A stretch of 64,000 nt of DNA from Parcubacteria group bacterium GW2011_GWA1_56_13 (GTDB lineage: Bacteria > Patescibacteriota > Minisyncoccia > Phycocordibacterales > Phycocordibacteraceae), in contig LCRY01000002.1 in the NCBI GenBank assembly GCA_001004905.1, positions 115,577-179,576 of the forward strand. The letters are read 5' to 3'. The first letter of the stretch is position 1; each line of letters opens with the position of its first letter. A program made the translations under genes and the position numbers. Below the pieces are notes generated by a model. That model was not told where the DNA came from and searched no databases. It was given only the letters and a program-made list of their open reading frames with translations. Shown here piece after piece: positions 42,291-64,000 of the stretch.

Positions 42291-42761
42291 TCAGACAAAG
42301 AAAGGAAAGAAGACGACTCGCGGTTTCTTGTTGCGCGGCCGGTGGTATACATGCGCTCGGAACTTCTCTCCTTGAACTGCGCGGAGAAACCATTCGCGGT
42401 CGAGCTCGGGCATGAGCTGAAGCGGGATATCTTTAACGGGATACCAGCATGGCGTCATGGTCTCCGTTTCGCGCGGGCTGTCCTTGAAGTAGCTCGTGTG
42501 GAAGACGTGCAGTTCGAGATCCGGCACATCCGCCACTATGTAGGAGACGATAACGGCCACTCGCTCCAGTTTTCTCGGGTTGAGCAGAATGCCGGCTTCG
42601 TTGTGGGCCGCGCGCACCAGACACTGGGCAAGTGTCTCGTTCTTCTGCTGTTTCGCGCCCGGTCCGCTTAGCGAGCTTCCTCCGACTTCCGCCTCAGCCC
42701 TCTTTACGCCGAGCAGGACCTGGTTCCACCGCGTGATGATGCCAAACGTTGCGATTTCCAC
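42291..42761 (-). CDS. NUDIX hydrolase (MutT-like)
   Basis: GAKQQKNETLAQCLVRAAHNEAGI approximates the Gx5Ex7REUxEExGU Nudix motif. SD GGAGGAG before the ATG. Confidence 0.65.
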   Translation of the reverse strand: MEIATFGIITRWNQVLLGVKRAEAEVGGSSLSGPGAKQQKNETLAQCLVRAAHNEAGILLNPRKLERVAVIVSYIVADVPDLELHVFHTSYFKDSPRETETMTPCWYPVKDIPLQLMPELDREWFLRAVQGEKFRAHVYHRPRNKKPRVVFFPFFV

Positions 42762-42813
42762 GGGCTCCTCCCTTCAGTGTATTGATCCGCCGGTATGGTA
42801 TCATCGCCCGCAT

Positions 42814-43542
42814 ATGGATACAAACACAACGGGCAACAAGTACTTTTTACCAACAGCGGTCATAGTCGCAGGCCTCGTTATCGCCGGCGCGGTCGTGTGG
42901 AATGGCTCGCGCTCTCCGTCCGGGACAGGCGGGACGGGGACGGCGCCGCGAGCCAGTATCAAAGATGTGAAAACGGAGGGAGAGCCGTTCATTGGAGCGG
43001 CCTCGGCGCCGGTCACCATCGCGTTCTGGAGCGATTTCCAGTGCCCATACTGCAAGGCGTTCGAGGTAGGTCATAAGGATATCCCGACGCCGGCGGCGCT
43101 TCCCGACATCATCAAGAATTACGTTGACACCGGCAAAGTAAGGATAGTTTTCAAGGACGTCGTATTTCTCAGTCCGCGAATGGGTACCGACTCAATGACG
43201 GGTGCCGTCTATAACCAGTCCGTTTGGAAGCTTTACCCGGATACGTATTTCGCCTGGCGTACGGCGATATTCAACGCCCAGGACGAAGAGGGAGGAGGCT
43301 TCGGCAACGCGGCGTCCATCGACAAACTCAATGCAACCATCCCCGGTCTTGATGCGGCGAAGATCGCGGCGGATGTGAGTGCCAATCGCGCCGCGTATGA
43401 GAAGCACGCGAATGACGTAACCGCCGAAGCACAGAAGCTTGGCGTGGACGCAACGCCGTCCATCATTGTCGGCGATTCTCTCATCAAGGGCGCATATCCA
43501 TACGCCACCTTCCAGGCGGCGCTTGATGCGGCTCTAAAGTAA
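42814..43542 (+). CDS. DsbA-like thiol:disulfide oxidoreductase, membrane-anchored (CPYC)
   Basis: N-terminal TM and a thioredoxin fold with a CPYC active site. Start MDTNTTGNKY at 42814, preceded by a TGgTATCAT extended -10. Confidence 0.7.
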   Translation: MDTNTTGNKYFLPTAVIVAGLVIAGAVVWNGSRSPSGTGGTGTAPRASIKDVKTEGEPFIGAASAPVTIAFWSDFQCPYCKAFEVGHKDIPTPAALPDIIKNYVDTGKVRIVFKDVVFLSPRMGTDSMTGAVYNQSVWKLYPDTYFAWRTAIFNAQDEEGGGFGNAASIDKLNATIPGLDAAKIAADVSANRAAYEKHANDVTAEAQKLGVDATPSIIVGDSLIKGAYPYATFQAALDAALK

Positions 43543-43671: not shown

Positions 43672-44097
43672 ATGCAGATCTCGGTTACATCATCCGGCCG
43701 GCACGCGGATATGCTGCGCCATGCCGGTTTCAGGGCGACCTACGGCCGCGTGGCGCTCCTTGAGATGCTTGCGCACGCGCGCAAGCCGGTTCGAGTAGAA
43801 ACGGCCGCAAAGGCGGTGCGAGGAAAGCTCGACCTCACCAACACCTACCGGGCGCTCGAGGCGCTCCGCAGAGTGGGCCTCGTCCGCCGCGTGGACCTGG
43901 GGCACGCCCACACGCACTACGAGCTTGCGGAAGGAAAGCATCACCACCATCTGGTCTGCGACTCATGCGGGAAGGTCGCGGATGTCGAGATACAGGAAAA
44001 AGAAATGGAGCGCGCGGCGCTCCGGGCCGCGCGCGATTTCAAAAGCGTTCGGGCTCATTCGCTCGAGTTCTTCGGGCTTTGCAACGCCTGCGTATGA
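43672..44097 (+). CDS. zur: Fur-family metalloregulator (probably Zur, given the adjacent ZIP transporter)
   Basis: DNA-binding wHTH then the HHHLVCDSCGK...C..C metal-site motifs. ATGA overlap with the downstream ZIP gene. Confidence 0.75.
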   Translation: MQISVTSSGRHADMLRHAGFRATYGRVALLEMLAHARKPVRVETAAKAVRGKLDLTNTYRALEALRRVGLVRRVDLGHAHTHYELAEGKHHHHLVCDSCGKVADVEIQEKEMERAALRAARDFKSVRAHSLEFFGLCNACV

Positions 44098-44837
44098 CCG
44101 ACATTTGGCTCTACACGCTCGTCAGTGTCGCCGCCGTCAGCCTCGTTTCGCTTATCGGGATCCTTGCGTTGGGGATCAAGCAGGAGCTCCTCCAGCGTAT
44201 CCTGTTCTATCTCATTAGTTTTTCCGCCGGCGCGCTCCTGGGCGACGTATTCATCCACATCCTTCCGGAACTCATGGAGGGAGAATCGGCTTTGCAAAAC
44301 GGCGGTTACGTCCTTGCCGGCATCGTACTGTTCTTCGTGCTCGAACGCGTCCTTCTGTGGCATCACTCGCATACCTCCCACGAAGAAAAGGTGCACTCGA
44401 TGGTGTATCTCACGATCGTCGGGGATGCGCTCCATAACCTCCTCGACGGCGTCGCGATCGCCGCGGCCTTTCTCGCGAGCGTCCCTGTCGGCGTCGCCAC
44501 GGCCGGCGCGATCATTTTCCATGAGGTCCCGCAGGAGATAGGACAATTCGCCATTTTGGTGCATGGCGGTTGGAGCAGAAAGAAGGCGTTGCTCTACAAT
44601 TTCTTCTCCGCGCTCACGGCGATCGTAGGAGCGGTCGCGGCTCTCCTTTTCTCCAGGCGTTTTACCGAGGCCCCGACGGTACTTCTTGGGTTGGGAGCGG
44701 CGAGCTTCATCTATATCGCGATGTCGGATCTGATCCCGGAACTCCAGAAAGAGTCCCATATGCATAGATCGGTGCTGCAGCTCATCTGGATGATCGCCGG
44801 TATCGGTGTCATGGCGTCGTTATTGTTGCTTGAATAG
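44094..44837 (+). CDS. zupT: ZIP-family zinc transporter (ZupT-like)
   Basis: 8 TM helices. Metal-binding HNLLDG and HEVPQEIG motifs characteristic of ZupT. Start MTDIWLY at 44094, not the extended 43965. Confidence 0.85.
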   Translation: MTDIWLYTLVSVAAVSLVSLIGILALGIKQELLQRILFYLISFSAGALLGDVFIHILPELMEGESALQNGGYVLAGIVLFFVLERVLLWHHSHTSHEEKVHSMVYLTIVGDALHNLLDGVAIAAAFLASVPVGVATAGAIIFHEVPQEIGQFAILVHGGWSRKKALLYNFFSALTAIVGAVAALLFSRRFTEAPTVLLGLGAASFIYIAMSDLIPELQKESHMHRSVLQLIWMIAGIGVMASLLLLE

Positions 44838-46397: not shown

Positions 46398-49172
46398 ATG
46401 GAGTCAACGCCGAAGTTGTCCACGCCCGAAGAGGAACTCGCGTATTTGCGCGAGCAAGTAACGCGTAAAGAGGCCGAGCTCGCCCTCCGACAGAGCTCAG
46501 AACAAGCCGGTGCGGAGCAGGCAACGATCATTTCGGAGACGGTTCGTGAACACCACGCGGCTCCCGCCGAGATACTCGCGCCGCAATACCGCATAAGCGA
46601 AGCGACGAAGAAGAGCGAAGCGGACGCGATACGCGCCGAACTCAACCTCGGCCGAAGCGAACAGGCGATACAGGGCCTCCAGCGGACGATGGAGGAAAAA
46701 GGGATAAAGAACGCGCTCGCAGTGCTTGAAAAGCTTCATGACCCGCACGTAACGGATGATTTTCATCGGTATCTCGTGCGCCATATCGCGGCAGGACTTC
46801 CGGCTCCCGGCGTTGATGAAAAAACACCCCGATTTCAGGCGCTCCGCATGACGCTGTACGAGATCGCCCTTCCAGGGGCAAAAAGCGTCGAAGCGCACGA
46901 GCGCGCAAAAACCCTGAAAGAGCTCATCTCCGGCATGGAGCAGTTCTATGCGGGACTTCTTTCGGTGAAAGACGCTTCGATGGGCGAGCCGCACTACTAT
47001 GCGCTTGAGCTCGCCGTGCCCGCCAACAGTCCCGAGCTCCAATTCTATGCGGCGGTGCCGAACGGGAAAAAGAATCTTTTTGAAAAGCAACTCCTTGCGG
47101 TATTTCCCGACGCGCATCTGGTGCCACAGACCTCCGATTACAATATCTTCGCTCCGGGCGGCACATCGCTCGCTTCCACCGCCCGTTTCGCGGAACATCC
47201 GGCACTCCCTTTAAAGGATTACACTGAGTTTGATTACGATCCGCTGAACACGATCACGAACGCATTCGCAAAAATAGAACAGGCGGGGGAGGGGGCGGCA
47301 CTCCAGATCATCATCGAGCCCCGCGCCGAGCGGCACGTGACGCATTATCGGAAAATACTTCACGCGCTTCGGAAGGGAGAGAAGCATACGGCGGCATTTT
47401 CGACGCCGGAGACGGCATTCGGCGAGATCGCGCGCGATATCGGCCGGACGCTCTTCCGGAGCAAGCCCAAAGACGAACAAAAGGCAAAAGAGGCCGAGAC
47501 GCGCCAGATCGAGGCGAACAAGACGCATATCGAGCAGGTGGAGAAAAAAATCGCCGCGCCCATCGTCGGTGCCACCATCCGGCTCGTTGCCTCCTCGAGC
47601 GATGCGCGTAAGGCGGAACAGGTGCTCGGCGAGCTCGAGGCGGCGTTCAATCAATTCGCCAATACGCAGGGAAATCGGCTCGAATTCGCACGCGCTACCC
47701 CGCGGCAGGCGCAGAGTGTTTTCGAGGATTTTTCCTTCCGCCTCCCGAATCTCTCTGCGCTCCCGCTCTCGCTTCGCGAGCTCACGACGCTCTACCATTT
47801 CCCGCCGTCGGGCATCGAAAGTTCGCCGCATTTGAGGCAGGCGCGCTTTACGCACGCCCCCGCGCCGCTTTCCTTACCGCATGCGGGCACTCTGCTTGGC
47901 GTGAACGTGTACCGCGGGGAGCGGACGGAGATCCGCATTGAACCGGAGGACCGCCTGCGCCATCTCTATATCATCGGTCAGACCGGCACCGGCAAGACGG
48001 GGCTCATGAAGTCAATGATCATCCAAGATATCGCCGCGGGCGAAGGATGCTGTTTCATTGACCCGCACGGCACCGACATTCTGGATATTCTCGCCTCTGT
48101 GCCGCCCGAACGTTACAAGGACGTCATTTATTTCGACCCCGCAGACCTGTCCCGCCCGTTCGGCCTCAACTTTCTGGAATACGACTTCTCGCGCCCGGAG
48201 CAGAAGACCTTCATCGTGAACGAGCTTCTGATGATATTTAAGCGGCTGTATGGCGACGTGCCGGAGAGCATGGGTCCGGCTTTCGAACAATACTTCCGCA
48301 ACGCGACCCAGCTCGTGATGGAAGACCCTGCGAGCGGTTCAACCATGCTCGACATTGCTCGCGTGCTTTCCAACGCAGAATTCCGGCGCCAGAAGCTTGC
48401 GAAAAGCATGAACCCAATCGTGAATCAGTTCTGGAACGAGATAGCGACGAAGGCCGGAGGCGAAGCGTCGCTCGAAAATATCGTGCCGTATATCACGAAC
48501 AAGTTCGACGACTTCACCGCGAACGACTTTATACGGCCCATCATCGGCCAGCAGGACTCGTCCTTCAAGTTCCGCGAGGTCATGGACACGAAGAAGATAC
48601 TGCTCGTCAATCTCTCCAAGGGACGCCTGGGTGAACGGAACGCGAACCTGCTCGGCCTCGTCATCGTGGGGAAGCTCTTCATGGCCGCGCTCTCTCGCGC
48701 CGACAATCCGCGCGCAGCGCATGCTCCGTTCTATCTCTACATAGACGAATTCCAGAACGTCACCACCGATTCTATTCCCGGAATCCTTTCGGAGGCACGC
48801 AAGTACAAGCTCGCTCTCACTCTTGCGCACCAGTTCCTCGCCCAGATAGAAGAGAGGGCGCGGGATGCCGTCTTCGGCAACGTTGGCAACATGGCGGTCT
48901 TCCGCGTTGGCGAAGAGGACGCTGAATTCTTCGCCAAGCAATTCGCGCCGGTCTTTGAGGCGCTCGATTTCGTCAATATCGAGAACCGCAGCGCATATAT
49001 GAGGATACTCGCGAAGGGCATTCCGCAGAAACCATTCGACCTAAGGACCGCCGATTTGCCCGCAGGAAATCCCACGCAAGTGGACGACCTTATCCAGCTT
49101 TCGTCACTCACGTACGGCCGCGACCATGCTACAGTTGAAAGCATGATACGAGAGCGTTATCTCTCGCATTAA
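46398..49172 (+). CDS. FtsK/HerA-superfamily ATPase of the VirB4/VirD4 (TraG) clade with a ~480-aa N-terminal domain of unknown function
   Basis: Walker A IIGQTGTGKTGLM and Walker B YLYIDEFQNV. Arg finger EARKYKLALTLAHQFLAQ (TraG-D_C-like Q motif). No TM helices. TATACT -10 7 nt before the ATG. Confidence 0.7.
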   Translation: MESTPKLSTPEEELAYLREQVTRKEAELALRQSSEQAGAEQATIISETVREHHAAPAEILAPQYRISEATKKSEADAIRAELNLGRSEQAIQGLQRTMEEKGIKNALAVLEKLHDPHVTDDFHRYLVRHIAAGLPAPGVDEKTPRFQALRMTLYEIALPGAKSVEAHERAKTLKELISGMEQFYAGLLSVKDASMGEPHYYALELAVPANSPELQFYAAVPNGKKNLFEKQLLAVFPDAHLVPQTSDYNIFAPGGTSLASTARFAEHPALPLKDYTEFDYDPLNTITNAFAKIEQAGEGAALQIIIEPRAERHVTHYRKILHALRKGEKHTAAFSTPETAFGEIARDIGRTLFRSKPKDEQKAKEAETRQIEANKTHIEQVEKKIAAPIVGATIRLVASSSDARKAEQVLGELEAAFNQFANTQGNRLEFARATPRQAQSVFEDFSFRLPNLSALPLSLRELTTLYHFPPSGIESSPHLRQARFTHAPAPLSLPHAGTLLGVNVYRGERTEIRIEPEDRLRHLYIIGQTGTGKTGLMKSMIIQDIAAGEGCCFIDPHGTDILDILASVPPERYKDVIYFDPADLSRPFGLNFLEYDFSRPEQKTFIVNELLMIFKRLYGDVPESMGPAFEQYFRNATQLVMEDPASGSTMLDIARVLSNAEFRRQKLAKSMNPIVNQFWNEIATKAGGEASLENIVPYITNKFDDFTANDFIRPIIGQQDSSFKFREVMDTKKILLVNLSKGRLGERNANLLGLVIVGKLFMAALSRADNPRAAHAPFYLYIDEFQNVTTDSIPGILSEARKYKLALTLAHQFLAQIEERARDAVFGNVGNMAVFRVGEEDAEFFAKQFAPVFEALDFVNIENRSAYMRILAKGIPQKPFDLRTADLPAGNPTQVDDLIQLSSLTYGRDHATVESMIRERYLSH

Positions 49173-49176
49173 ACCT

Positions 49177-51687
49177 ATGGCCAAACAAGAACGGCCCCCC
49201 CGTAAAATCAAAAGAGGACCCGAGATGTCTCCTGCTGCGCCTAAGACCACGGTGGGCATTGCTTTGGAAGAAGCGATTAAGAAAAATGGCGGTTGGCACC
49301 CGAATGGGTCCGAGGATGAGGCGCAGGCGGAAGCGGTACGGCGGTGGGAAAACGAAGGAGGAAGGATAGTCGAGGAGCCGAAAACGGAGAAGCGGGCAGA
49401 ACAAGCGTCGGAGAACATAGAGGAATTTCGAGACCTTATACATAAGGCGATAGAAAATCCGCCGGAAACGCCTGCACCGAACCGATTTTCAGGACCCGCA
49501 GAGGCTGCCTATCGTGAACTTGCTGAAATTACGAGAAGAGCAGGGGTTAAACCGGAAGATTTGGATGAAAAAGTGTGGAAGGGTGCTAACGCGGCGCTGG
49601 ATAAGGTCAAAAGATTCGCTCAATTGCGCTCTGAAACGCAGGATAAGGAGAAAATAAAGCAGCTAGATGAGCGGATTCGACAGGCGACCGCCAGTTTGGT
49701 AAGTAGAAAAATGAGAGAGAAAATTGAAAAAGCAGCGCGAGAGACTCTAGAAAAAGAAAAATCGAAAGTAAAAACCGAGGTGGCGGGTGCTACAGATGCA
49801 ACTACAAAGGTCAACTCTAAGGCGGAGTCTGAGGCGCCACATCCGGAAGAAGACGGCGGCGACGCGGTGCCGCCTGAGCAGTCGAAGGCAGAACGGGAGA
49901 ATCTCTACGAACTTTACACGAGAAAGCAGAGGGAAAATGCCGCACCTGCTGACTCGATAGCGGCGGAACCGGCAACTCCCAAGTCAGCAGAACAACTGCA
50001 AGCCGAAAACGAGATGCTGCGGAGAATAGGAAAAAAGCTTTCCGCTACAGAGATGAGGGAGCCGACACAAGAGGAAGTCGGACACATGGCTGTCAGTCCG
50101 GAAGATGTTCCGGAACACATCCGGGAACGTCTCGCCGCCGAGGGCACGAGAAGCGAGATGGTCGAGCGTCTGAAAGGCGTAGTCCGAAGCGCGCAAGGGA
50201 AGCTGTACGAAGCGGGTGTTGCGGCGCAGGAAAAAATCGCGTGGTGGAAGAGCTCCGAAGAGCATCTTGTCCGGCGCTCGGCGGAATTGGATGCCGAGGC
50301 GGCGGAGATTGGCTGGGTGGAAAGCGAGTTCAGGAAATGGGGCGAGCGCTATAACAAAGTCGGCTGGAAGACGAAACTCGCTGTAGGCCTTGCTCTTGGT
50401 ATCGGAGCAGGACTTTCCGCACCTGTCTCGATGCCTATGGCCGCTGCTTGCCTGTTTGGCGTCGCAGCCCAGCGCATCCTCGGTCTCTCGACGATGTATC
50501 TGAAATACGAGAAGGTATTCCAAGATCAAAAATGGGGGAAGGAGCGTGCCATGCTGAATGCAATTGGATATTCCGCCCTCATGACCGCGGGCACGATGTA
50601 CGCGGTACAAAAAATCAGCGATGCCGACATAGTCAGCCGCGTCCGCGAATGGCTTGCCGATAAGCTGGGACACCAGACGCCGCCGAGGCCGGAAGTATCG
50701 CAGCCGATGGTTACAACGGGTACGGGTCCCGGTGCAGAGATACCGCCGCTCACCGTCCATGCGGCGCCCGGGCAAGGTTACGAGTACATGCTGCAGCGGA
50801 TGTGGGAACAGTTGCAGGACAAGGGCCTCGACCCGAACCGGTATCCCGAAGGCAGCGATATTCGGCAGCTGCTTGAAACGGCGCCGCAAGATATCGACAA
50901 GGTCGTGCATCAGCTTGCGAGCGACCCGAGCCATGGCTTCTTCAGGCCCGACGGCACAAGCGCGCCCATCGGAAAAGGCGATATTCTGGCGTTCAACACG
51001 GGCGGCCAGATACTGCACATAAACCCCGAAGGCGTGGCCGGCGTTCACGCGGCTATCGAAGCGCCTGTGCCGGTCTACCATCCGGAAGTTCCTACTCCCG
51101 CGTCCGCAGTGCCGCTTCCCGAACAGGTCGTCCCCGCGCAAGATCCGGTAGCGAACATAGACCTCACTCCCGGCCAACAGGCAGTACAAGAAGGAACGCA
51201 GGCCGCGGTCACCGCGGCCCCGCCCCCTGAAGCGATGCCGCGAGAGCCCGAACACATACTCTTGCGCGACAGCTCCGGCAACCCGGTCACCGACAGCTCC
51301 GGGAACCCGGTCCGCTCGCAATTCCCCGAACACGCCGCATCCATTGAGGCGCCTATTGCGAACGCCGAGGTCGTCTCAAATCAGTTCGGTCTCGCGATAC
51401 CGGTCACCGAACCGCATATCTACGGTGACGAGGGCGGACAGCAGATACTTGTGTACGGCGGGACGCCGCAAGAGCAGCTGAAGGCGATGCAGGACTTTCT
51501 CATAAAAAATCCGGGCAAAGTCGTTTTCGGCACCGATCCTTCCGGGAAATACCGCATTCCCTGGGGGCTCGTGGAAGGGGAATTATCGCCTATCGGCCAG
51601 CCAGTGCGCACGAGCGGCTTCTTCGGATTCTTTTCGTCCTTTATGGAAGCGCCCGGAGCGGATGAACTAAAGCAGCTTATTAAATAA
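49177..51687 (+). CDS. Large hypothetical membrane protein (836 aa): charged coiled-coil N-terminus, 3 central TM helices, Pro-rich C-terminus
   Basis: Coding-like composition with a purine-rich 5' part. TM segments LAVGLALGIGAGL, AAACLFGVAAQRIL, AIGYSALMTAGTMYAV. 4-nt gap after the ATPase gene. Confidence 0.55.
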   Translation: MAKQERPPRKIKRGPEMSPAAPKTTVGIALEEAIKKNGGWHPNGSEDEAQAEAVRRWENEGGRIVEEPKTEKRAEQASENIEEFRDLIHKAIENPPETPAPNRFSGPAEAAYRELAEITRRAGVKPEDLDEKVWKGANAALDKVKRFAQLRSETQDKEKIKQLDERIRQATASLVSRKMREKIEKAARETLEKEKSKVKTEVAGATDATTKVNSKAESEAPHPEEDGGDAVPPEQSKAERENLYELYTRKQRENAAPADSIAAEPATPKSAEQLQAENEMLRRIGKKLSATEMREPTQEEVGHMAVSPEDVPEHIRERLAAEGTRSEMVERLKGVVRSAQGKLYEAGVAAQEKIAWWKSSEEHLVRRSAELDAEAAEIGWVESEFRKWGERYNKVGWKTKLAVGLALGIGAGLSAPVSMPMAAACLFGVAAQRILGLSTMYLKYEKVFQDQKWGKERAMLNAIGYSALMTAGTMYAVQKISDADIVSRVREWLADKLGHQTPPRPEVSQPMVTTGTGPGAEIPPLTVHAAPGQGYEYMLQRMWEQLQDKGLDPNRYPEGSDIRQLLETAPQDIDKVVHQLASDPSHGFFRPDGTSAPIGKGDILAFNTGGQILHINPEGVAGVHAAIEAPVPVYHPEVPTPASAVPLPEQVVPAQDPVANIDLTPGQQAVQEGTQAAVTAAPPPEAMPREPEHILLRDSSGNPVTDSSGNPVRSQFPEHAASIEAPIANAEVVSNQFGLAIPVTEPHIYGDEGGQQILVYGGTPQEQLKAMQDFLIKNPGKVVFGTDPSGKYRIPWGLVEGELSPIGQPVRTSGFFGFFSSFMEAPGADELKQLIK

Positions 51688-54781: not shown

Positions 54782-56860
<2,079 letters not shown>

Positions 56861-56957
56861 GCTCGCGGCACTTCGGCCTAATCCCTGTCCACACTGGGCC
56901 GATGGACCTCGATAGCGCCGCGACGCCCATGCGCTACAATTGACGCAGTATTAATAT

Positions 56958-57448
56958 ATGCAAATTTCCTCACAAGAGCTGGCCCGATCACTTAAGATAC
57001 TCATCCTCGCGCTCGTTCTCGCTATTGCTCTTTCCGTCGGAACGGCATACGTTCGCGCATGGACAGGACCCACCGGCACCGCACCCTCCAACAACACGGC
57101 CCCGCCGATAAACACGAGCGCCACGGCACAGACGAAGGCGGGAGGTATCAATTTTCAGAACTACGCCCACTTCACCGGCTACGGCACCGATTCCTGGTCT
57201 ATCTCGACCCAAATAACACCAATAGGATGAATTACGTGGTGGCGGACAATCTCTACGTATACGGCACCGTCCGCGGCGGCAGTTATGGATTTGGAGGGAT
57301 GTACGTAGACGTAGATGGTTACTGCACTGGCATAAACGGCAGGGTCCTCAACCCATTTACGGGATGGTGTAGCTGTCCAGCAGGTTTTACTAGCGCGCTT
57401 CTTAACGTCAATCAGGGAAATAATCTTATCTATTATTGCTATAAGTGA
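56958..57448 (+). pseudogene. Frameshifted paralog of the secreted Cys-rich protein 58098-58616
   Basis: Frame 1 (56958-57230) matches paralog residues 1-70 (AWTGPTGTAPSNNTAPPINTSATAQTK). Homology continues in the -1 frame from ~57194 (LVYLDPNNTNRMNYVVADNLYVYG vs YYLDPNGTSRVGQANADNTYTYG) to the stop at 57448. Confidence 0.5.
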
Positions 57449-57567
57449 TTGAAGTCGGGTGTTCGTGAAATTTCAGGACGCTTTCGCGCCTATTCTTATC
57501 CACACAGTGACGATATGGTCGACACTGTAAGGGTATACAATTGAGCGCAGTGCAACCACCGTCCACC

Positions 57568-58095
57568 ATGAGAAAGGCGTTGCCGTTCGTCTTTATAGTC
57601 ATCGCTGTCGCTGCGGGGTGGCAGCTGGGCCGCTGGCAGGCCCTTGAATCGGCAAAAGCGCGCCTTGCGGCGTATCAGTTGCTGCCCGTTCCATTAGATT
57701 CTAAGAACGTTTTCGGCACCATCGCCGACATTGACGGAAGCACGCTTTCCATTCGCACCTCATACACGAATCCGCTCGAGGATGCGGCGAACATAGTCAG
57801 TGTTGCCATTACCGATTCCACGACTATTGAGGGAGTTGAGATGAAAACCCAGAAAGTGTTCGATGCCGAGATTCAGAATTTTGCAAAAACCGCAAAAACA
57901 AGTTCTACAACGCCATTATCACCACCCGAGCCGTTCTTGCGACAGGCGCTCAAAGCGTCCGACCTACTTGTTGGTCAGTCCGTATCGGTGATTACGGCGG
58001 AAAACGCGGTAGGCGCGCGGCGCGTCACGGCGGTCTCGATACTCGTCAGTGCGCAGCCACCCACTGCGGCCACGTCCACGACTAAGTCGGATTAG
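57568..58095 (+). CDS. Membrane-anchored hypothetical protein
   Basis: Start MRKALPFVFIVIAVAAGW (TM). Sits between the two Cys-rich paralogs; 2-nt gap to the next gene. Confidence 0.4.
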   Translation: MRKALPFVFIVIAVAAGWQLGRWQALESAKARLAAYQLLPVPLDSKNVFGTIADIDGSTLSIRTSYTNPLEDAANIVSVAITDSTTIEGVEMKTQKVFDAEIQNFAKTAKTSSTTPLSPPEPFLRQALKASDLLVGQSVSVITAENAVGARRVTAVSILVSAQPPTAATSTTKSD

Positions 58096-58097
58096 CC

Positions 58098-58616
58098 ATG
58101 ACCATTCCTCCCAAAAAGCCGTTACGTTCCCTCGCGACGCCCATTCTCGCGCTTGTGCTCGGCGTCGGCCTCTCCATCGGCGCCACGTATGTCTACGCCT
58201 GGACCGGCCCCACCGGCACCGCTCCGAACAACAACACGCCCCCGCCGATAAACACGAGCGCCACGGCGCAAACGAAGTCGGGGGGATTGACGGCTGGCTG
58301 GATGCAAGCGCCGATTTTCTACGATTCTAACAACGCCGGCTACTACCTCGACCCGAACGGCACGAGCCGGGTGGGCCAGGCGAACGCCGACAACACCTAC
58401 ACGTACGGCAACGAGAACGCAAACGACTACTATGTCCGTGCCGTAGGCAGATGGGCGAGCGCCCCCGCCGTTTCCATGGATTGCTATGATACGGGATATT
58501 ATCAGGGTAACTATTGTGATGGTGGTGGATATAAATTTTGCAGAACCTGTGTGAATAACACCTGCTCAAATTATGTCATGATTAGCAACACTTGCGGAGG
58601 AATGGGTTCCATTTGA
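58098..58616 (+). CDS. Secreted cysteine-rich protein (signal peptide ...ATYVYA|WTGPTGTAP; 6+ Cys in the C-terminal 45 aa)
   Basis: Sec-type signal with an AxA site; paralog of 56958-57448. C-terminal CYDTGYYQGNYCDGGGYKFCRTCVNNTCSNYVMISNTCGG. Confidence 0.55.
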   Translation: MTIPPKKPLRSLATPILALVLGVGLSIGATYVYAWTGPTGTAPNNNTPPPINTSATAQTKSGGLTAGWMQAPIFYDSNNAGYYLDPNGTSRVGQANADNTYTYGNENANDYYVRAVGRWASAPAVSMDCYDTGYYQGNYCDGGGYKFCRTCVNNTCSNYVMISNTCGGMGSI

Positions 58617-58631
58617 ACAAACGAATAAAAA

Positions 58632-59945
58632 ATGAAACCGCAGCACGAACACTTTCTCTCGCATGCCATCCGGTCCGTTTTCCTGCTAGCGGTGGTTGTT
58701 TTTGCTTCCTATTATTTTTCCGTATCGTACCTGCCCCGTGCACAGGCGAGCGCGACCGATTCGCTCTCGGGTTATGCCTGGAGCGACAACGTCGGCTGGA
58801 TATCGTTCAACTGTACCAACACCGGCAGCTGCGGGACTTCGAATTATGGCGTCACGGTAAACCCCACGAACGGCGAAATGTCTGGTTACGCTTGGAGCGA
58901 CAATGTCGGATGGTTCTCCTTCCAGCCGGGGGACGTGGCCGGATGCCCGCAGGCGCCCTGTACGCCAAAAGTAAATCAGGGGAACGGAACGGTTACCGGG
59001 TGGTTCCGCGCCCTTGCGAACGGCGGCGGCTGGGACGGCTGGGTGTCGCTCTCCGGCGTAACAGTAAGCGGGGTAGCATTTGCCGGTTATGCTTGGGGCT
59101 CGGACGTTGTGGGGTGGGTGAGCATGAGCGGAGTGATGAATACGTTTACCGCGCCCACGGTTTCCTGTTCGGGCGCCCCTTCAACCGCGTACATCGGCCA
59201 GCAGGTTACCTGGAGCTCCTCAGTATCCGGCGGTTCCGGAAGCTATACCTATAGTTGGAGCGGGACAGACGGTCTTTCCGGCACGAGCGCCTCGACTCAA
59301 AAAACCTATTCGACGACCGGCACGAAACAGGGAACAATCGCCGTTACGGATACTGTCTCGGGACAGACCTCGTCCGCTTCCTGCAATGCAGGTGTAGGCG
59401 TGAGCGTCCAATCCTGCAGCGCCTCGCTTTCCGCGAACCCGACGACCGTTGAAGAAGGGCAGAACACGACGCTCTCTTGGAACGTTCCGGGCGGCTCGTC
59501 TTGTGCGGCTTCTTGCTCCGGCAGCGGATTCAACACGGGCGGCGCGCTCTCCGGCTCGACGAACGCCTCTGTCCCTCCAACTCCGCCGTCCACTTCCTAC
59601 GGCCTTACCTGTTCCGGCGGCACGTATGGTCCGCCGCCGCCGGTGAACGTCACCGTCAGCGTCGTCACTCCAACGGCAACCATTACCGCGAACGGCCAAT
59701 CCAATTCCGCGCGCGTGAATCCCAATACTCCTAACAACACTACCGTCGCATGGTCATCCACGAACGCCTCGTCGTGCGCCGTTACCAAAAACGGTAACGC
59801 CTGGAGAAACGGCCTCAGCGACCCCGGCAGGACCGATTCGGTCACGACCCAGAGCACCTACGCGCTCGACTGCGTGAATGACCACGGCACGCACGCGACC
59901 GACTCCGTCATCGTAAACGTGATACCTGGCTTCCAGGAGTTCTAG
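58632..59945 (+). CDS. Secreted repeat protein: 3x [10 protein letters not shown](I/F)SF repeats followed by Ser/Thr-rich Ig-like (…SWS…G/…C…) modules
   Basis: Signal/[31 protein letters not shown]. Three ~45-aa repeats. Downstream repeats [33 protein letters not shown]. Confidence 0.6.
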
Positions 59946-60037
59946 TATGGCAGCGTCTCTCCCCGCCGGATTGGCCCCGAAACGGGCCAAATGCTATAGT
60001 GCTACCGTACCTGCCCCGCCACGGGCAGGAAATTTCA

Positions 60038-62710
<2,673 letters not shown>

Positions 62711-62742
62711 GTATTCACGCACGTGATATTCTGAATTCAACT

Positions 62743-63930
62743 ATGCAAGTAGCACTGCAGTCCAATATTTGGAAGTACACAGTGCTTCTCGTTACCAATA
62801 AGCGGGTATTCGTTGCTATACTCGGCGTGTATTACCTCACGATTCCTGGGGTAACTCCTTTTTGGATAGGCATTTTCTTGCTTGCAGGGAATGGTGCATC
62901 GTTTATTTTTGATATCCCAAGTAGTTACATAGCAGATAGGATTGGTCATAAACAAGCAATCGTGTTGTCGCGGGGCATTATATTCTTTTCAACTTTTTTC
63001 TTCCTATTTGCCACGAACGTGTTGTGGCTCGTCATGGGCTCAATACTGCTAAGTATGGGTTTTGCCTTTTTGAGCGGCGTCGGCAGTGCATTCATGCATG
63101 AAACCATGCGCGGACTCAACCGCGACAATGAATACACTGCAGTCATGGGAAAAGTCAGTTCCGTCGGGTTTTTTATCCCTGCAATTATGGCGGCCATTGT
63201 GCCATTTTCCGTCAGCATCAGTTATAAAATTCCATTTATTATCATGCTCGGTCTTGATGTCGTAGGTCTTATCATGGCCCTGTCTCTCGTTCGTCCGGCA
63301 GTGAGTCCCGAGCATGTCGCAGAGGTAAGCGAGACCAAGTTTCTTGAAGTCATCCGTCAGGGTCTTGCTCTGCGCTTCTTCCGTATCGCGACTTTTTCCG
63401 GCGTAGTCAGTGCTCTTATTTACGCAGTAGATGGGTTCCGCGGCCCATATCAACTCTTGCTAGGCATACCGGTCATATGGTTCGGAATATTTTTTGGCAC
63501 AGGACGTGCTCTAGCCGCGCTACTCCTTGCTTACAGCGGCAAGATACGTCACCTGATCGGTAATGTGTACTCATTCCAGCGAGTACAAATCCTTGTGTAC
63601 GGGGCGTTACTTCTCATTCTCGGCCTCATTTCAAACCCTTGGATAGTGGTTATTGTGTTCGTCTTGGATAACGCTCTTCGATATGGATTAAGCCAGGTTG
63701 ACACGGGATATCAGCTCGATATTATTCGGAATCATAAATTTAAAGCGACACTCATTTCTGCGGGTAATCAAATACAAAACGTTATCTCAATGTGCGCCGT
63801 CGGTACAATCGGTATTTCCATAGAACGCTTCGGTTATCAACTCTCGTTTCTCATATTTGCTATTGTATTTCTTGCCATTCAGATTCCGCTCCATTTATTT
63901 ACGTACCGCAACCGTCTTCTAATCGGTTAG
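62743..63930 (+). CDS. MFS-type transporter in an AT-rich (~45% GC) island
   Basis: ~11-12 TM helices. MFS motif A-like ADRIGHKQ. GC far below the flanking DNA. Confidence 0.7.
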   Translation: MQVALQSNIWKYTVLLVTNKRVFVAILGVYYLTIPGVTPFWIGIFLLAGNGASFIFDIPSSYIADRIGHKQAIVLSRGIIFFSTFFFLFATNVLWLVMGSILLSMGFAFLSGVGSAFMHETMRGLNRDNEYTAVMGKVSSVGFFIPAIMAAIVPFSVSISYKIPFIIMLGLDVVGLIMALSLVRPAVSPEHVAEVSETKFLEVIRQGLALRFFRIATFSGVVSALIYAVDGFRGPYQLLLGIPVIWFGIFFGTGRALAALLLAYSGKIRHLIGNVYSFQRVQILVYGALLLILGLISNPWIVVIVFVLDNALRYGLSQVDTGYQLDIIRNHKFKATLISAGNQIQNVISMCAVGTIGISIERFGYQLSFLIFAIVFLAIQIPLHLFTYRNRLLIG

Positions 63931-63932
63931 AT

Positions 63933-64000
63933 ATGCAAAAAAGAGAACTGCATAAATATAATCTGCCAGATGTGCCGGGGGTGTACCTCTTTTTGCAAAA
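63933..64000 (+). CDS. uvrC: Excinuclease ABC subunit C, N-terminal fragment (window edge)
   Basis: MQKRELHKYNLPDVPGVYLF matches the UvrC GIY-YIG N-terminus (L.(D)LP..PGVYlf). Confidence 0.5.
   Translation, partial: MQKRELHKYNLPDVPGVYLFLQ

Follow-up and report, generated by a model that had tools for sequence, protein, structure and literature searches.

A conserved Patescibacteria gene cassette for candidate surface fibres with a constant N-terminal module and variable tips

What do the four genes that lie between uvrB and uvrA in Parcubacteria group bacterium GW2011_GWA1_56_13 encode, and do they belong together? We analysed a window of 64,000 nucleotides (nt) from this organism, which is of the Candidatus Kaiserbacteria lineage (contig LCRY01000002.1, positions 115,577 to 179,576 of the forward strand; positions below are those of the window). 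The gap between uvrB (54782-56860) and uvrA (59999-62710) is filled by four + strand genes in the order F1, T, F2, R: two paralogous candidate fibre genes (F1 and F2), one for a protein with a membrane anchor (T) and one for an exported repeat protein (R). An earlier sequence-only reading had described this island, with its anchored protein and its repeat protein, and all of these are present, but it had missed that the same genes occur together in other genomic contexts. Judged by comparison with other genomes, they are a conserved cassette and more than an island peculiar to this locus. Both the family and the cassette are well founded: the sequence anatomy, how large the family is, the tail-fibre homology of relatives, the linkage of F to R and the mosaic and deletion alleles are all shown by the data. 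Cleavage of the signal peptides, disulfides, trimers, docking, adhesion and thus the function are inferred. On balance we favour a conserved Patescibacteria cassette for Sec-exported, disulfide-stabilised surface fibres, with a constant N-terminal docking module and swappable receptor-binding tips for contact with a host or other cell.

The N-terminal module and its family

Directly after a hydrophobic leader (residues 1-34 in both proteins) F1 and F2 share a module, AWTGPTGTAP(S/N)NNT(A/P)PPINTSATAQTK(A/S)G, identical at 26 of 29 residues and 75 of 87 nt. It lies at 57060-57137 (W35-K60) in F1 and at 58200-58277 in F2, and this region of the two genes forms a 172-nt direct repeat of 74% identity. 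The common leader and module had been recognised from the sequence; the cleavage motif had been given as AxA|W and is VxA|W, the leader ending VRA|W in F1 and VYA|W in F2. Signal peptides were judged from sequence features, and cleavage is throughout predicted cleavage. Both leaders have what Sec export and signal peptidase I (SPase I) call for: a positively charged n-region, a hydrophobic region of about 15-20 residues (KD19 maxima 2.58 in F1 and 1.94 in F2) and a small residue at both -3 and -1, with no cysteine of the lipobox type. A Sec-type N-terminal hydrophobic segment is found on all four products of the island. We rejected two other classes for the fibre candidates: lipoproteins, as there is no lipobox cysteine, and sortase substrates, as there is no LPXTG.

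Beyond the module the two paralogues diverge. F2 (172 residues, 58098-58616, KKW43567) is intact and has one YYLDPNGTS repeat (58341-58367) and a type-B cysteine-rich tip (58482-58595). F1 is broken in this window. Its open reading frame (ORF) starts at 56958 and ends prematurely, after 90 residues, at 57230 (KKW43564), while its YLDPNNTNR tail-fibre-type repeat and type-A cysteine-rich tip (GGSYGFGGMY...CSCPAGF...YYCYK) lie in another frame at 57200-57448. There is no cysteine ahead of residue 129 in either protein, and intact F1 has four and F2 six, where five to seven had been counted before. With module, one repeat and a small cysteine-rich tip, F1 and F2 are minimal members of their family.

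Curated models say little about these proteins. F1, F2, T and R gave no usable match in Pfam, NCBIfam or PHROGs, apart from a borderline PKD_4 match in R and a spurious eight-residue cEGF match. For F1 and F2 there was no PHROG match at E<=0.1 and no Pfam match even at E<=10, Peptidase_S74 and Shufflon_N included. Sequence searches of the PDB with F1, F2, R and two profiles (A1 and A5) found nothing significant for F or T. A word-indexed search with intact F1 gave 11 relatives, and a profile made from these was run against 1.84 billion representative proteins. At E<=1e-3 it matched 7,551 clusters, defined at 50% identity, and at E<=1e-10 it matched 2,124. Such wide recurrence of the module puts its sharing by F1 and F2 far beyond chance.

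Across 153 sequences the consensus is W-T-x-P-T-x-x-P-P-x-G-N-x-x-A-P-[ILV]-N-x5-Q-x-K-x-G-x-L, with I as the consensus residue at the [ILV] site. Near-invariant positions are A(-1), W(+1), P, PP, N, P, N, Q, K and G. Position -1 is alanine in 147 of the 153 and position -3 valine or alanine in 130. The strict motif stands about 25-35 residues from the N-terminus in 117 of the 144 top members, and the leader before it (LALxLSxGxSYVxA) is conserved to a degree unusual for a signal peptide. Both window paralogues fit this pattern of a leader ending [VA]-x-A followed by the module. Conservation falls off after G-x-L, which makes the conserved element about 28-30 residues long, and its position past the predicted cleavage site places it in the mature protein. 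N-glycosylation sequons were considered as a cause of the conservation and rejected, since the asparagines are conserved and N-x-S/T is not.

What follows the module is hypervariable, and members range from 78 to 1,237 residues with a median of 245. The cysteine count after the module is even and non-zero in 120 of the 144 members and odd in five, which argues for disulfide pairing outside the cytoplasm. Many members carry a C-terminal tip signature of the F1 type, CP-x-G-[FY]...aromatic-C-x-K. The sequence-only reading had held that the tips need disulfides and had pointed to two DsbA-like proteins encoded elsewhere. The one we checked, a thioredoxin-fold protein at 42580-43542 (+ strand, outside the island), is confirmed as DsbA-like (Thioredoxin_4 2e-22, DSBA 1.7e-10); it is a candidate oxidase for the cysteine-rich tips, and together with the even counts it supports disulfides outside the cytoplasm.

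To see where the family occurs we scanned one genome per species with the N-module alone and obtained 80 loci, with 121 fibre ORFs across 78 of them. Nearly all are labelled as Patescibacteria: Kaiser-, Nomura-, Yonath-, Taylor-, Nealson- and Moraniibacteria, Paceibacterota and 'uncultured Saccharibacteria' metagenome-assembled genomes (MAGs). Genomes can carry several copies, and two loci of one MAG (L027 and L051) hold at least six fibre genes. A few loci bear labels from outside the phylum (L055, L069, L052, L058, L043, L073 and L076), namely Alphaproteobacteria (about 1 Mb), Hyphomicrobium, Bdellovibrionales and Pacearchaeota; a paired R and fibre gene is present in L058 and L069. The 'Pacearchaeota' contigs are mislabelled, because they carry the bacterial genes for GroEL, NusA, trigger factor and ClpP. 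The contigs labelled Hyphomicrobium, Alphaproteobacteria and Bdellovibrionales could be mis-binned high-GC contigs of the Candidate Phyla Radiation (CPR) or the result of horizontal transfer. Full-text searches of the literature, with motif strings and with CPR combined with tail fibre or S74, found no description of the family.

It is the relatives that connect F1 and F2 to tail fibres. Among the 144 members, Pfam recognises Peptidase_S74 (S74) in 15, Shufflon_N in seven, Gly_rich_2 in four, and a phage tail Collar domain and a collagen IV C4 domain in one each. The relative P0017 is 53% identical to F1 over 153 residues and ends in S74. It matches 45 tail-fibre PHROGs, the best at 2.6e-38, and some of these alignments reach back to residue 57, into the region that it has in common with F1. 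In P0142 the N-module is followed by more than 10 copies of the repeat YDxNNxGYYxDPxGxS and by S74, and each of these copies aligns to the single repeat of F1. The earlier statement that no family is recognisable thus stands for the curated models and fails for the homologues, which link to fibres of the tail-fibre type. Among the roles proposed with it, adhesin, toxin or bacteriocin-like effector, the adhesin fits best, as relatives with the same module end in phage receptor-binding or tail-fibre domains. Homology to housekeeping secreted enzymes, which would have refuted the sequence-only reading, did not appear.

Domains of this kind raise the question of whether the island is a remnant of a prophage or tailocin, with leftover tail-fibre genes. 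The matches of the relatives to S74 and tail-fibre PHROGs would fit this, as would the match of the immunoglobulin (Ig)-like domains of the R family to a phage tail protein (PDB 9c2d_S, 1e-5) and the IS200-type Y1 transposases beside the cassette in two other genomes. However, every member has a Sec signal peptide, and virion proteins that are put together in the cytoplasm can do without one. The neighbours of the window island are tgt, uvrB, uvrA and a major facilitator superfamily (MFS) gene, with no virion or other phage genes in the island or the examined flanks, and many Patescibacteria keep the cassette among housekeeping genes. Searches of IMG/VR and of 50,697 phage records found no relatives. 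The absence from these collections, the signal peptides on all members and the housekeeping flanks indicate that the family is cellular and not viral, and we regard a phage remnant as highly improbable. The comparison with phage fibres and tailspikes that have a C-terminal S74, such as the T5 L-shaped fibre and the K1F endosialidase, leads to the same division: the S74 domains and PHROG matches of the relatives and the YYxDPxGxS-type stalk repeat are alike, whereas the window proteins have Sec signal peptides, lack S74 and PHROG matches and are not found in phage genomes. Nor is the N-module the baseplate-attachment domain of any known phage family.

The Shufflon_N matches suggest a different comparison, with the PilV adhesins of IncI thin pili (PF04917), in which a constant N-terminus carries alternative tips that set partner specificity. 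F proteins might then be PilV-like tip adhesins of type IV pili, with the N-terminus inserted in the pilus and the C-termini selecting the partner, as in the R64 shufflon. The constant-N, variable-C layout fits, and so do one cassette close to a pilM-like gene and the standing of type IV pili as the best-documented attachment organelle of Patescibacteria (PMC11623550). However, the Shufflon_N matches are confined to the repeat zone (the repeats of P0142, for instance, match positions 233-287 of the model) and do not involve the pilin N-terminus. The window proteins have no class III prepilin leader and no G|[FM]xxxE motif, and their hydrophobic segment precedes the processing site. There is no site-specific recombinase in the island, and tip exchange, which is the other point of likeness, follows here from strain comparison and not from invertible DNA. 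A place at the tip of a pilus therefore seems very unlikely.

The cassette and its partner proteins R and T

R (437 residues, 58632-59945, + strand) has a leader of about 40 residues, an all-beta domain of GYAWSxNxGWISF-type repeats (about 58758-59141), a PKD-like Ig domain (59151-59381) and two more Ig-like domains (about 59403-59942). Its family numbers at least 1,391 clusters, every one labelled hypothetical; an 'AWA1' label on R appears spurious. What is conserved is the N-terminal domain, which has three or four of the GYAWS repeats and is covered by no Pfam or NCBIfam model. AlphaFold2, given 66 sequences, produced a confident all-beta model of it (predicted local distance difference test score, pLDDT, 82.8; predicted template modelling score 0.78), and Foldseek searches of this model against PDB and BFVD gave no assignment (best E 0.55 and 0.57, TM <=0.45). 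The model suggests that the domain may have an undescribed fold. Residues 174-250 score just under the threshold for PKD_4 (26.7 bits against a cut-off of 27, E 6e-6), and the profile of the family's Ig-like C-terminal domains also matches PDB 9ncf_S (2e-10). R ends in ...PGFQEF (59925-59945), an example of a C-terminal motif P-x-[FWY]-x-E-[FIL]-COOH found in about 30 of 45 ORFs at the loci (L012 to L090), and 37 of the 66 aligned homologues end in EF. PEF-CTERM was rejected as an explanation of this ending, as no transmembrane helix follows the motif.

T (175 residues, 57568-58095, + strand) has a single-pass N-terminal membrane anchor, no cysteine and a Pro/Thr-rich tail. T and its homologues have one N-terminal transmembrane helix, an ectodomain of about 130 residues that contains a conserved PP(E)PF motif, and frequently a Pro-rich tail. 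For T there is no Pfam, NCBIfam or PDB match. The word-indexed search gave only three close relatives of T, and the distant ones come from local phmmer searches of the fetched loci.

These genes often lie together. In the MAG GCA_030699625 the order F-T-F-R is found downstream of secY-adk-map; T is 51% identical to its window counterpart there, and R 46%. Three further loci were reached through R homologues, and in all three an N-module fibre gene lies upstream of R. Two of them (L002 and L004) have the order F-T-(small ORF)-R, so that T is present in two of the three, and in the third (L006) the only S74-bearing fibre of the set stands before R. Approached from the other side, in 41 of the 80 N-module loci an R homologue lies no more than 5 kb from the fibre gene, before or after it, and in 39 the two are adjacent; where the flanks are complete the fraction is 20 of 38. 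T is present in 11 of the 80. All other neighbour families are housekeeping, each in 13 loci or fewer. For a gene family with a few copies in a genome of about 1 Mb we would expect chance adjacency of F and R in a few percent of cases at most, which is our own estimate and not a computed control.

Two side observations concern the surroundings of the cassette in other genomes. IS200/IS605-type Y1 transposase genes adjoin it or lie near it in two (L001:9978-10640 and L002:1126-1836), and may be related to its varied genomic contexts; there is no Y1 transposase in the window island. In a single case a pilM-like (PilM_2/FtsA) gene (L006:9695-10786) lies about 2.3 kb from a fibre-R cassette, with three small ORFs between, and a link of the cassette to type IV pilus genes is possible.

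The make-up of the cassette bears on the other role suggested by the sequence-only reading, for which we found no positive evidence. F1 and F2 might be secreted, disulfide-rich toxins or bacteriocin-like effectors, with T as a membrane immunity protein and the conserved N-terminus as a leader for export or processing. The mature proteins are indeed small, cysteine-rich and Sec-exported, a small membrane protein is encoded between them, and the unusual conservation of the leader recalls some bacteriocin leader families. But the conserved part lies past the predicted cleavage site, and members that share it end in S74, Collar, Gly_rich_2 or tail-fibre repeats and not in toxin domains. The island has no dedicated ABC exporter or peptidase, and T, with its large extracytoplasmic domain, is a far less regular companion of F than R is. 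A toxin and immunity system is thus improbable.

Alleles, tip exchange and a proposed mechanism

The break in F1 can be traced by comparison with close relatives. The sequence-only reading had treated this paralogue as one protein by joining two frames, and GenBank has it as two fragments, KKW43564 and KKW43565. Three assemblies from the same population (L008, L009 and L010) are 100% identical to the window over the alignment, save for 82 extra nt after 57198, and encode an intact F1 orthologue of 190 residues (P0005). The frame is shifted in the window because these 82 nt are missing at the junction 57198-57199 (CCTGGT|CTATCTC). A programmed frameshift was considered and rejected, as the intact allele shows the 82-nt gap to be the cause. 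This gap is seen in the present assembly only, and is either a real allele or an assembly error.

A second allele has a 19-nt frameshifting deletion inside the N-module, in DNA that is otherwise identical (L094:1380-1760; L095:502-882). It is present in the sister assembly GWB1_57_6 and in the independent Logan assembly SRR29904084 and is therefore not specific to one assembler. F1 thus exists in three states in otherwise identical DNA, intact (in seven contigs), with the 19-nt deletion and with the 82-nt gap, a pattern that suggests repeated loss of one fibre within the population.

The fibre genes also appear to exchange their ends. In a related strain (L091:1231-3679) the order is uvrB-T-F-R, with a single fibre whose first 130 residues are 79% identical to F1 and whose tip is of the F2 type. 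From this mosaic we conclude that tips are exchanged between the paralogues, and we take it as sequence evidence of recombination between them.

The frameshifted alleles would also fit selection for the loss of a phage receptor, and with it a purely structural role. The products would then be envelope components, spanning the wall, associated with a surface layer or forming the scaffold of an appendage, that recognise no other cell, and the variable C-termini would serve evasion of immunity or phages. The export of all four products, the number of fibre genes in some genomes and the Ig-like stalk domains of R are in keeping with this. On the other side are the tip domains, which are common to phage receptor-binding proteins, and the constant-N, variable-C layout, a hallmark of binding fibres. 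The structural role overlaps with the recognition fibres that we favour, from which sequence alone does not separate it; we consider it unlikely.

How might recognition fibres of this kind work? F1 and F2 would be exported by Sec and cut by SPase I at VxA|W, exposing the proline-rich N-module at the start of the mature protein. Next would come a short stalk with one YDxNNxGYYLDPxGTS repeat and then the tip, which differs between the paralogues and would be folded oxidatively, possibly by the DsbA-like protein. The fibres would oligomerise, probably as trimers like their S74-bearing relatives. Phage and adenovirus fibres suggest, by analogy, that the constant module is the end for docking and assembly and the variable tip the ligand binder. 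In adenovirus a short conserved N-terminal tail of the fibre docks in a conserved base protein, and a repeat shaft ends in a variable receptor-binding knob. The analogy is one of principle, with no relation in sequence or evolution, and that the module docks to R or T is a hypothesis. The gene linkage makes R, together with T as a membrane anchor, the best candidate for the conserved envelope partner that the module would dock to. The tips would bind ligands on another cell, their repertoire modulated by shuffling, as in L091, and by inactivation, as in the two deletion alleles. With such fibres this presumably episymbiotic bacterium would attach to its host or partner cell, or recognise it, a view suggested by the architecture, by the phage-type tip domains and by the episymbiotic lifestyle of cultivated Patescibacteria.

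Several observations speak against this interpretation. F1 is inactivated here and in the second allele and is thus dispensable in at least part of the population. The mature fibres of the window are short, about 140-155 residues, have no S74 and may not be trimers. They match no tail-fibre model themselves and are tied to tail fibres only by way of homologues, with which they have the N-module and one repeat in common. An AlphaFold2 monomer of F2, from an alignment of 11 sequences, had a pLDDT of 49 and gives no evidence of a fold. No LPXTG, SLH or lipobox anchoring motif is evident on F or R, and half of the fibre loci lack R within 5 kb. Adhesion and episymbiosis are assumed from cultivated Patescibacteria and not from this organism.

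The closest described system appears to be the mosaic adhesive trimer (MAT) fibres of Bdellovibrio bacteriovorus, whose signal peptide and conserved N-terminal domain are followed by a fibre and by diverse tips, only some of them with S74, and which the predator carries on its surface (Caulton et al. 2024, PMC10769870). MAT proteins and the N-module family are both cellular and multi-copy, with a conserved region right after the signal peptide, a stalk and diverse tips, some with S74, and both come from bacteria that live on other bacteria, presumably so in the present case. Going by the description of MAT, the two are set apart by that conserved region, which is beta-rich and about 130 residues long in MAT and proline-rich and about 28-30 residues long here. 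They also differ in the organism that carries them, here a Patescibacterium with a Gram-positive-like envelope, and in the window members, which are tiny and have no S74. Linkage to a GYAWS/Ig-like protein and a transmembrane protein, as seen for the N-module family, is not described for MAT.

It is tempting to go further and propose that F, R and T form an undescribed Sec-dependent appendage specific to Patescibacteria, in which the invariant N-terminal peptide plugs interchangeable tips of the phage receptor-binding kind into a GYAWS 'socket' of novel fold and T holds the assembly at the membrane. We regard this as speculative and rather doubtful. If it were true, the tip repertoire and its on or off state, as in the mosaic and deletion alleles, would set which host cells can be attached to. 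For CPR bacteria type IV pili are so far the main attachment factor on record, in cultivated Saccharibacteria only, and a large, unannotated and nearly phylum-restricted family built like phage receptor-binding proteins offers candidate determinants of host specificity. The constant N-module is a sequence handle with which such proteins can be found in any CPR genome and, should the docking model prove right, host range might be predicted from metagenomes with the help of tip repertoires.

Possible promoters and neighbouring genes

The spacing of the island genes is tight, with 2 nt between T and F2 and 15 nt between F2 and R, and such small gaps make a single T-F2-R transcript probable. Identical TACAAT hexamers resembling a -10 element, the first read by eye from the sequence, precede the start codons of F1 (56935-56940, + strand, 17 nt upstream of the ATG) and T (57536-57541, + strand, 27 nt upstream of the ATG), which suggests two promoters, one for F1 alone and one for T-F2-R. 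A consensus scan found no full sigma-70 site near the F1 hexamer, and in a scan of the island for promoters and terminators the matches were not above shuffled expectation. The start of T in public records is the ATG at 57568; another possible start on the list, the TTG at 57541, falls partly within the second hexamer.

The wider flanks hold housekeeping genes, for tgt, an FKBP isomerase and the MFS transporter. A ZIP zinc transporter gene (43965-44837) adjoins the DsbA-like gene, and two big neighbouring ORFs on the + strand (46398-49172 and 49177-51687, 924 and 836 residues) gave no Pfam match at E<=1e-5. Within 62500-64000 the GC content falls from about 0.58 to 0.43-0.49 across the MFS transporter gene (62743-63930) on the 3' side of uvrA, and this region may be a compositionally foreign segment.

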